Source of the DNA: Eledone cirrhosa
Taxonomy: Eukaryota
DNA length: 64,000 bases
Direction: 5' to 3'
Assembly: GCA_964016885.1 (NCBI GenBank)
Contig: CAXHJY010001439.1
Location: 124,001 to 188,000 of the forward strand
Part shown: piece after piece, positions 4,631 to 7,614 of the stretch
How positions within the stretch are numbered: the stretch's first letter is position 1
How the letters are laid out: every line of letters begins with the position of its first letter
Position numbers and translations under genes: made by a program
Notes under the pieces: generated by a model
Told to the model about the DNA's origin: nothing
Databases searched by the model: none
Seen by the model: the letters and a program-made list of their open reading frames with translations, nothing else

Positions 4631-7614
4631 TGTGTCATTCTCGATAAAAGCACTGGATATGTAGTCCTGATGATTTCTAACAAGAATGAAACGCGTAGAT
4701 TACTTCCCTTGCTTTTATCGAGAATCTAATTGTAATACGTGACGTATTCTATTCTATAGCGATTAGGTCTTCAAAATGTTTATTATAAACATACAGAATA
4801 TTTTCGAATATTCTATGTCTATATTCACATATATATCGCTATTTCAGAGCATTTATTCCAATTTCTAATTTCTGCCGGACCGGCAACCGCTCTTTCAAAC
4901 CAGTTCCTGTACACAGCTAAGTATTCTATAAGTCTCTAGCTGTGTCATTCTCGATAAAAGCACTGGATATGTAGTCCTGATGATTTCTAACAAGAATGAA
5001 ACGCGTAGATTACTTCCCTTGCTTTTATCGAGAATCTAATTGTAATACGTGACGTATTCTATTCTATAGCGATTAGGTCTTCAAAATGTTTATTATAAAC
5101 ATACAGAATATTTTCGAATATTCTATGTCTATATTCACATATATATCGCTATTTCAGAGCATTTATTCCAATTTCTAATTTCTGCCGGACCGGCAACCGC
5201 TCTTTCAAACCAGTTCCTGTACACAGCTAAGTATTCTATAAGTCTCTAGCTGTGTCATTCTCGATAAAAGCACTGGATATGTAGTCCTGATGATTTCTAA
5301 CAAGAATGAAACGCGTAGATTACTTCCCTTGCTTTTATCGAGAATCTAATTGTAATACGTGACGTATTCTATTCTATAGCGATTAGGTCTTCAAAATGTT
5401 TATTATAAACATACAGAATATTTTCGAATATTCTATGTCTATATTCACATATATATCGCTATTTCAGAGCATTTATTCCAATTTCTAATTTCTGCCGGAC
5501 CGGCAACCGCTCTTTCAAACCAGTTCCTGTACACAGCTAAGTATTCTATAAGTCTCTAGCTGTGTCATTCTCGATAAAAGCACTGGATATGTAGTCCTGA
5601 TGATTTCTAACAAGAATGAAACGCGTAGATTACTTCCCTTGCTTTTATCGAGAATCTAATTGTAATACGTGACGTATTCTATTCTATAGCGATTAGGTCT
5701 TCAAAATGTTTATTATAAACATACAGAATATTTTCGAATATTCTATGTCTATATTCACATATATATCGCTATTTCAGAGCATTTATTCCAATTTCTAATT
5801 TCTGCCGGACCGGCAACCGCTCTTTCAAACCAGTTCCTGTACACAGCTAAGTATTCTATAAGTCTCTAGCTGTGTCATTCTCGATAAAAGCACTGGATAT
5901 GTAGTCCTGATGATTTCTAACAAGAATGAAACGCGTAGATTACTTCCCTTGCTTTTATCGAGAATCTAATTGTAATACGTGACGTATTCTATTCTATAGC
6001 GATTAGGTCTTCAAAATGTTTATAATAAACATACAGAATATTTTCGAATATTCTATGTCTATATTCACATATATATCGCTATTTCAGAGCATTTATTCCA
6101 ATTTCTAATTTCTGCCGGACCGGCAACCGCTCTTTCAAACCAGTTCCTGTACACAGCTAAGTATTCTATAAGTCTCTAGCTGTGTCATTCTCGATAAAAG
6201 CACTGGATATGTAGTCCTGATGATTTCTAACAAGAATGAAACGCGTAGATTACTTCCCTTGCTTTTATCGAGAATCTAATTGTAATACGTGACGTATTCT
6301 ATTCTATAGCGATTAGGTCTTCAAAATGTTTATTATAAACATACAGAATATTTTCGAATATTCTATGTCTATATTCACATATATATCGCTATTTCAGAGC
6401 ATTTATTCCAATTTCTAATTTCTGCCGGACCGGCAACCGCTCTTTCAAACCAGTTCCTGTACACAGCTAAGTATTCTATAAGTCTCTAGCTGTGTCATTC
6501 TCGATAAAAGCACTGGATATGTAGTCCTGATGATTTCTAACAAGAATGAAACGCGTAGATTACTTCCCTTGCTTTTATCGAGAATCTAATTGTAATACGT
6601 GACGTATTCTATTCTATAGCGATTAGGTCTTCAAAATGTTTATTATAAACATACAGAATATTTTCGAATATTCTATGTCTATATTCACATATATATCGCT
6701 ATTTCAGAGCATTTATTCCAATTTCTAATTTCTGCCGGACCGGCAACCGCTCTTTCAAACCAGTTCCTGTACACAGCTAAGTATTCTATAAGTCTCTAGC
6801 TGTGTCATTCTCGATAAAAGCACTGGATATGTAGTCCTGATGATTTCTAACAAGAATGAAACGCGTAGATTACTTCCCTTGCTTTTATCGAGAATCTAAT
6901 TGTAATACGTGACGTATTCTATTCTATAGCGATTAGGTCTTCAAAATGTTTATTATAAACATACAGAATATTTTCGAATATTCTATGTCTATATTCACAT
7001 ATATATCGCTATTTCAGAGCATTTATTCCAATTTCTAATTTCTGCCGGACCGGCAACCGCTCTTTCAAACCAGTTCCTGTACACAGCTAAGTATTCTATA
7101 AGTCTCTAGCTGTGTCATTCTCGATAAAAGCACTGGATATGTAGTCCTGATGATTTCTAACAAGAATGAAACGCGTAGATTACTTCCCTTGCTTTTATCG
7201 AGAATCTAATTGTAATACGTGACGTATTCTATTCTATAGCGATTAGGTCTTCAAAATGTTTATTATAAACATACAGAATATTTTCGAATATTCTATGTCT
7301 ATATTCACATATATATCGCTATTTCAGAGCATTTATTCCAATTTCTAATTTCTGCCGGACCGGCAACCGCTCTTTCAAACCAGTTCCTGTACACAGCTAA
7401 GTATTCTATAAGTCTCTAGCTGTGTCATTCTCGATAAAAGCACTGGATATGTAGTCCTGATGATTTCTAACAAGAATGAAACGCGTAGATTACTTCCCTT
7501 GCTTTTATCGAGAATCTAATTGTAATACGTGACGTATTCTATTCTATAGCGATTAGGTCTTCAAAATGTTTATTATAAACATACAGAATATTTTCGAATA
7601 TTCTATGTCTATAT
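4631..7614 (+). repeat. 310-bp tandem array, ~9.6 near-identical units, each carrying a hammerhead ribozyme (non-LTR retrozyme-like)
   Basis: Unit start tgtgtcattctcgataaaag at 4631, 4941, 5251, 5561, 5871, 6181, 6491, 6801, 7111, 7421; only one substitution noticed (6024); flanked by (TA)n on both sides. Confidence 0.95.
4637..4725 (+). ncRNA. Type I hammerhead ribozyme (first of 10 copies, +310 bp each)
   Basis: Stem I gtagtc/gattac; core CTGATGA 4667-4673; stem II ttct-aaca-agaa; GAAA 4688-4691; minimal stem III C-GC-G within palindrome ACGCGT; predicted cleavage after GTA (4697); stem I extended by gga/tcc and a perfect 16-bp helix attctcgataaaagca/tgcttttatcgagaat. Confidence 0.85.

Follow-up and report, generated by a model that had tools for sequence, protein, structure and literature searches.

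A young family of 310-bp hammerhead-bearing tandem repeats in Eledone cirrhosa with insertion ends of the Penelope type

The 310-bp tandem array

The window (the whole 64,000-nt stretch of DNA analyzed in this study, from contig CAXHJY010001439.1 of the Eledone cirrhosa assembly GCA_964016885.1, positions 124,001 to 188,000) contains a tandem array located within a (TA)n tract. The array and its target are composed of the following features:

4050..4630, left (TA)n target tract
4631..7614, + strand, one-armed insertion of 9.6 tandem units of 310 bp, with one substitution (6024)
4631..4633, + strand, 5′ junction at unit position 244, with TGT common to the array and a variant TA tract
4698..5007, + strand, predicted 310-nt monomer, from cut site to cut site (nine such)
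4756..4909, + strand, block common to older sister families with other hammerheads (~75-82% identity), containing both 3′ end sites
4828..4861, + strand, 34-nt "tail" that separates the short end site (unit position ~130) from the long one (~164)
7610..7614, + strand, short-class 3′ junction at unit position 123-127, with TATAT common to the array and the target
7615..7792, right (TA)n target tract

Analysis with TRF gave a period of 310, 9.6 copies and 99% matches, and a position-by-position comparison revealed that the units are identical save for a T>A substitution at 6024. On either side, the array is flanked by a (TA)n tract in which G occurs here and there. The ~9.6 near-identical units with a single substitution, and their insertion in (TA)n, had been described in an earlier reading of the sequence alone (the sequence-only reading), and both descriptions were borne out; the copy number of 9.6 is the value given by the assembly. 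The unit has a G+C content of 0.34, and no ORF of 100 aa was found inside the array. In a test for target-site duplication, the left and right (TA)n tracts had no distinctive block in common. The 34-nt tail is present in the internal units of the array and missing at its 3′ end. We infer that the 3′ junction (7610..7614) marks the start of reverse transcription and that the 5′ junction (4631..4633) is a truncation joined by microhomology.

Directly 5′ of the array, and on this side only, lies a tandem duplication of ~750 bp (window positions 3258-4631), comprised of a 43-nt unique piece and the variant TA tract. An assembly artefact, a duplication of local origin or repair synthesis where the second arm is missing could each account for it.

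The hammerhead motif and its predicted fold

Each unit of the array carries a type I hammerhead motif, whose elements are given below for the first unit:

4638..4724, + strand, domain closed by a 15-bp stem (4638-4652 with 4710-4724), with compensatory changes in sister families
4661..4703, + strand, type I hammerhead motif, recurring each 310 bp
4661-4666/4698-4703, + strand, stem I (GUAGUC/GAUUAC)
4667-4673, + strand, hammerhead CUGAUGA
4674-4687, + strand, U.U mismatch, then stem II (four pairs)
4688-4691, + strand, hammerhead GAAA
4691-4696, + strand, palindromic ACGCGU, with the predicted cut after 4697

All ten cores of the array (10/10) are located at 4667+310n, with the GUA ending at 4697+310n, which confirms the motif previously proposed for every unit. 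A U.U mismatch opens stem II, and stem III is a single A-U pair closing a palindromic CGCG loop. The domain 4638-4724 has a predicted folding energy of -30.3 kcal/mol (z -7.2), a stability equaled by none of 200 shuffles (0/200). For the 310-nt monomer folded as a circle, the MFE is -67.8 kcal/mol (z -5.0, versus 60 shuffles), and the pair probability of stem II in this folded circle is ~0.15.

A search of Rfam, as recommended by the sequence-only reading, did return a match to Hammerhead_HH9 in all ten units, but with a score of 19.2 bits (E 0.35), under the gathering score of 52; no Rfam hammerhead was found at gathering score anywhere in the window. Because this match was sub-threshold, the fold was tested by comparison with sister families. 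In 12 domains, drawn from the family and from its older sister families, 94.9% of cells are paired. Two-sided changes occur at 17 of the 28 pairs, a value reached in 0/500 shuffles, and it should be read with the caveat that the structure was drawn from the window's own sequence and that kinship among the domains inflates such scores. The covarying swaps span stems I and II and the closing stem, and the core pair C3-G8 is replaced by U3-A8 in 5 of the 12 domains.

The hammerhead looks weak in these models, its Rfam score being far under the cut-off and its stem II having a probability of only ~0.15 in the folded circle, and its predicted cutting may be slow. The strand of stem III is predicted to self-pair at -9.5 kcal/mol, which makes paired cutting plausible and means that a circle on its own would be rather stable. 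Two hammerheads are probably required for the cut. As monomers, the axolotl hammerheads HHR_Amex1 and HHR_Amex2 cut poorly (6% and 22%); their dimers cut well (PMC7229834).

Other repeats were also observed in the window. Fold-back hammerhead stumps of other families are located at 16350-16460, 30765-30860 and 21700-21960, the first two with the same U.U opening of stem II, and single hammerhead-like motifs of other repeat families were found at 23399 and 50790 (+ strand) and at 17309, 50115 and 51269 (- strand). A mirror stump of an ORF-bearing family of Penelope-like elements (PLEs), as at locus L134, occupies positions 40310-40680; its two ends, a long and a short one, lie in (TA)n, and its hammerhead core has U3-A8. 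A 98-bp GC-rich tandem repeat (6.7 copies, 96% matches) is present at 32519-33174.

Size, age and relatives of the family

The family was counted with fixed sequence patterns in the 3.0-Gb genome assembly. An exact 43-mer produced 4,177 matches on both strands versus 0 for the reversed control, and the earlier doubt that the array might be an assembly artefact is thereby removed for the family as a whole. A looser hammerhead pattern gave 13,686 motifs, ~0.14% of the genome, and scaling from contig C1 leads to an estimate of roughly 1,800 insertions genome-wide. The copies are numerous and dispersed, and they are without an LTR layout (PBS and PPT were outside this test). The unit was also found in public sequencing runs of four studies; no RNA run was listed among these, which has no bearing on expression. 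Three public runs each yielded one 340-nt contig identical to the unit plus a 30-nt overlap, a form in which a circle and a tandem array assemble alike.

We read 129 insertions base by base, namely that of the window and 128 on C1 (first 202 Mb; two pairs of more than 9 kb were left out). The length of their arms ranges from 0.2 to 27 units. These contain 136 single-unit substitutions in 349,735 bases, which shows that the 310-bp family is very young. Its older sister families, with unit identities of ~64-68% to the 310-bp unit, have units of 314-323 bp, other hammerheads and the same 3′ block (L153-L182, L104 and L134:332-705; 997 exact matches to one pattern). The conserved block (4756..4909) would be a region of protein recognition, and possibly a promoter region too.

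It is very probable that the 310-bp repeat is an animal non-LTR retrozyme and constitutes a new member of this established class. Both the class and the recent spread had been proposed from the array alone, and they are upheld by thousands of near-identical copies at many loci. The same reading had named a single-locus unit devoid of structure-preserving variation as the case against it; the unit occurs at multiple loci, and the two-sided changes described above preserve its structure.

Insertion ends and the two-armed layout

Using patterns that themselves required TA, we detected 2,685 junctions to (TA)n genome-wide, which fall into two classes: (i) 1,374 short 3′ junctions, at unit positions 127-139 after the cut, and (ii) 1,311 long (tailed) 3′ junctions, at unit positions 164-172. 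A control site, which has TA microhomology of its own, gave 3. TA flanks were seen too at arrays picked by their hammerhead alone. The first 197 listed ends on C1 form 68 divergent pairs within 20 kb, all of which combine a short with a long end; short-short or long-long pairs would have been detectable in this listing.

Two arms joined 5′ to 5′ are present in 110 of the 129 insertions read, and each of these (110/110) has one short and one tailed end (P = 1.5e-33). The joints at the centre are mostly overlaps of 0-7 nt or short templated inserts. Among the 19 one-armed insertions, 2 end at assembly gaps and 1 has a second arm too short to align; 13 of the 16 that are left are short-ended, like the array of the window (P = 0.02). 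In one insertion (L036:3099-3370), 272 unrelated GC-rich bases separate the two arms, a possible template switch to another RNA.

PLEs are characterized by an inverted truncated copy, a tail of 30-40 bp at one end and a bias towards (TA)n (PMC8557442, PMC3846280). In the 310-bp family we likewise observed an inverted 5′-truncated copy, a tail of 30-40 bp at one end only, and a microsatellite or AT-rich target. The ORF-bearing PLE families of this genome have the same end layout and similar hammerheads. It is very probable in our view that the 310-bp family is mobilized by a PLE-type enzyme. The partial-unit ends of the array had been taken as a sign of insertion from a circle; we rejected this argument, since the 3′ ends are fixed at two sites of the PLE type and the 5′ end is a random truncation. 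Other arrays, a search for which had been advised in the sequence-only reading, were found dispersed in the genome, with fixed 3′ ends.

Partner element and promoter

The 310-bp unit has no ORF for a reverse transcriptase (RT) with a GIY-YIG domain, which an autonomous PLE would encode. We searched for a PLE carrying the 3′ block of the unit among 68 GIY-YIG loci of six families (drawn from 10,596 first-look candidates, 150 of which were scored) and found none. A comparison of the ends of three PLE families with the 310-bp unit gave shuffle p values of 0.07-0.98, and 30 sister-family loci yielded only three short tblastn matches to PLE protein. A GC-rich PLE adjoining L033 was rejected as partner, as it lies across an assembly gap. 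An intact ORF of 938 aa encoding RT and GIY-YIG is located elsewhere in the genome (L134:4809-7622, - strand) and belongs to a PLE family that appears to be young; beyond a frameshift, the ORF seems to be continued by a frame lying upstream.

Newt satellite 2 is a promoter repeat of the snRNA type, with a U6-like octamer, PSE and TATA. The U6 genes of E. cirrhosa have an octamer and TATA upstream. No octamer was found in the 310-bp unit, and its matches to the U6 promoter stretches of this genome are chance-level words only. Approximately 30 U6 snRNA genes form a tandem cluster with ~1.8-kb spacing (L185-L194, G000:C19, 31.78-31.84 Mb).

Selection on the ribozyme and an excess of A>G changes

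Substitutions were divided into those fixed array-wide and those restricted to a single unit. Within the hammerhead and closing stem, 14 of the 15 array-wide substitutions keep the core and the pairs, versus 3 of the 19 single-unit ones, of which 16 break the fold (P = 1.3e-5); the rules of fold tolerance were set by us from the established hammerhead consensus. No array-wide change is found in the hammerhead core. The array-wide G14T breaks one pair of the closing stem, and two insertions of 1 nt that are fixed array-wide create bulges in stem I, at a distance from the core. This contrast between inherited and private mutations suggests that ribozyme function is needed for the spread of the family.

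On the sense strand, A>G accounts for 14 of 41 array-wide substitutions versus 9 of 137 single-unit ones (P = 3e-5), and the excess persists outside the scored stems (7/26 versus 6/116, P = 0.003). Four variants recur on several lineages, three of them A>G changes in stems; A20G, A259G and A276G were each found on two to four lineages. A-to-I editing of one template molecule would give such an excess, with G.U tolerance and template switching as alternatives; the sites are too few for a test of ADAR neighbour preference. In L059 and L060, A276G is present in most, though not all, units, and one arm of L059 has A over part of its length and G over the rest, a pattern to be expected from editing or from a template switch while the copy was being made.

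The nature of the template

Both arms have the same haplotype in 78 of the 81 insertions with an arm-wide variant. The probability of this for a random pair is 0.12, which indicates that one template was used per insertion. We distinguished 34 haplotypes in 99 insertions (each covered at least twice). A private variant in every unit was observed in 19 of these 99, and because a mutation arises in one unit, its fixation throughout an array needs passage through a monomer. Together, the data favour a single ribozyme-competent monomer, probably circular, that was copied repeatedly.

The most serious competitor holds that a PLE-type enzyme copies an uncut linear multimer, that the arrays grow and are homogenized at the DNA level, and that the hammerhead acts rarely or at another step. 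It would account for three of the 110 two-armed insertions (L063, L239 and L251), in which the same variant occupies the same unit index in both arms; these point to a multimer template or to in-register gene conversion in a minority of cases, at least 3 of the 110. In L251, a change of haplotype occurs after two units, at an index common to the two arms. L034 and L101 have a common variant at different unit indices. The weak-looking hammerhead (Rfam score, stem II probability) is also in keeping with an uncut template. The 19 insertions with private variants in every unit of both inverted arms argue against it, as do the 87 variant calls that are unshared in the index-matched overlap of the arms and the fold-preserving bias among inherited variants. 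Variants that are not fixed within an array recur between insertions in 21 of 134 cases (10-21 by chance), i.e. unit-specific variants are passed on no more than chance would have it. Moreover, 5′ truncation should shorten the arrays in each round, yet arms of up to 27 units exist. We regard this explanation as unlikely.

The template might instead be a cut linear monomer, with the RT jumping repeatedly from its 5′ end to its 3′ end and no covalent circle being formed. Such a template would account just as well for the passage through a monomer and for selection on the ribozyme, and template switching has been seen in the family (L251 and the 272 foreign bases in L036). R2 enzymes are capable of end-to-end template jumping. 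However, none of the 237 arm 5′ ends is located at the cut site (position 1), although 1,136 cut sites were crossed and up to 3 of the 237 could sit there within microhomology, and no base was added or lost exactly at any of the 1,136 cut junctions. Clean jumps would be needed more than 99% of the time, which renders this alternative improbable. The absence of ends at cut sites fits a circle or an uncut RNA, for which it is equally predicted, and not cut linear ends.

A fold-back, self-primed origin of the inverted copy has been proposed for Penelope (PMC3846280), and such an origin of the second arm, which would be uninformative as to two priming events, would be in line with the short overlaps and templated inserts at the centre and would trivially produce common haplotypes. 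Against this, 49 of the 110 two-armed insertions have the greater length in the short-ended arm, and in the other 61 the partner arm has 34 nt that are missing from the short-ended one, so that neither arm can in every case have been copied from the other by fold-back. The 5′ phases of the two arms differ by no more than 10 nt in only 7 of 63 cases (4.3 expected). A fold-back origin is therefore very improbable. Finally, the sub-threshold Rfam score, the small contig and the 750-bp flank duplication might raise the suspicion that the array is a common minisatellite in which a hammerhead-like string arose by chance, or that the assembly was collapsed or expanded. This reading is given practically no credence and is ruled out for the family by its thousands of copies at dispersed loci, the fixed ends, the covariation (including the C3-G8 swap) and the occurrence of the unit in public runs of four studies.

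Proposed mechanism

Taking the repeated copying of one monomer as the preferred reading, we consider it probable that the repeat is a retrozyme moved by a PLE-type enzyme from a mostly monomer-derived, probably circular template. A rolling-circle origin of the array had been suggested at the outset; it is favoured by the haplotype, end and selection data, while the argument from partial-unit ends falls. The following steps are envisaged: (i) read-through transcription of an array would be followed by predicted cleavage into 310-nt monomers by paired hammerheads of neighbouring units, through the palindromic stem III; (ii) the monomers would be closed into circles by a host ligase of the RtcB type, the need for paired hammerheads leaving a lone circle fairly stable; (iii) a borrowed Penelope-like RT-endonuclease would make a double-strand cut in (TA)n, and both 3′ ends of the cut would serve as primers on a single RNA, at two sites separated by 34 nt; (iv) the circle would be copied lap after lap into multimeric cDNA; and (v) the two cDNAs would be end-joined by microhomology. 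In the window, the short-site arm alone would have been fixed, its distal end being ligated directly to the TA tract. The fuller version, in which a dimeric Penelope-type protein acts on a ribozyme-made circle by rolling-circle TPRT, with selection in each round and A-to-I edits written into every unit, is offered tentatively, as a possibility somewhat short of a probability.

How retrozymes come to occupy new loci, whether a circle serves as their template, and which role the hammerhead has in Penelope-type transposition are open questions in the field (PMC7229834, PMC8557442, 10.64898/2026.07.22.740005). A young family with long identical arms turns such questions into counts. The strict rule of one short and one tailed end constrains the priming model of PLEs, and the 310-nt unit with its mapped start sites is a substrate for an in vitro test. 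If true, the rolling-circle reading would explain both the movement of animal retrozymes and the origin of the Penelope structure of an inverted copy plus tail. It would also open a possible route from RNA editing to heritable repeat sequence.

Comparison with known systems

The retrozyme class and its link with PLEs have already been published. In the literature (the supplements of PMC7229834 and of the 2026 preprint being outside its scope), our search came upon no description of a retrozyme from a cephalopod or of retrozyme arrays with two arms, and upon no report of the junction rule, the single template or the evidence of selection. The words hammerhead, retrozyme and ribozyme have 0 occurrences in the main text of PMC13282606.

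The 310-bp repeat resembles the animal non-LTR retrozymes of coral, mussel, axolotl (Rtz331, Rtz353) and newt (satellites), which consist of a non-coding tandem unit of 150-450 bp with a type I hammerhead in each unit (PMC7229834). Stem III, with one pair and a palindromic tetraloop, matches that of axolotl HHR_Amex1, and HHR_Amex2 has the same U.U at the base of its stem II; PLEs are present in the same genome, as is the case with animal retrozymes (PMC7229834). The sequence and the host are different, and RNA, cleavage and circles were demonstrated for those retrozymes, whereas the present case is built on genome sequence. In the consulted part of PMC7229834, mobilization by PLEs is a proposal only, and no two-armed layout, fixed end sites or haplotype analysis are described. 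A mostly vertebrate retrozyme study deals with the same class and reaches the same conclusion on the mobilizing enzyme. It draws on co-occurrence and on homology to the pLTR; we detected no such homology but did find an insertion footprint of the PLE type. That study leans towards local tandem amplification by unequal crossover, whereas in E. cirrhosa whole arrays appear to have been inserted at once. Among frog retrozymes, 8 of 9 were without cleavage (10.64898/2026.07.22.740005), which counts against the proposed mechanism, as does the use of uncut RNA by the anole PLE described below.

The Chlamys elements (e.g. MRC1) are non-autonomous PLE derivatives with multicopy head-to-tail insertions, as observed here; they originate from green algae, mostly lack canonical hammerheads and resemble an autonomous partner at their 3′ end, for which no counterpart was found in this study (PMC8557442). 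Unlike PLEs, the 310-bp family has no ORF, and would form a closed 310-bp loop with up to 27 repeats per arm. In the anole PLE, the tail is the interval between two RT start sites, and the protein cuts and extends both strands; uncut RNA is its main substrate, and the hammerhead is dispensable in vitro (PMC11167929). The anole protein displayed no strand difference in start site in vitro (PMC11167929), whereas the two arms differ here in 110/110 insertions. PLEs and the 310-bp family are alike in having a hammerhead upstream of two internal RT start sites (PMC11167929, PMC8557442).
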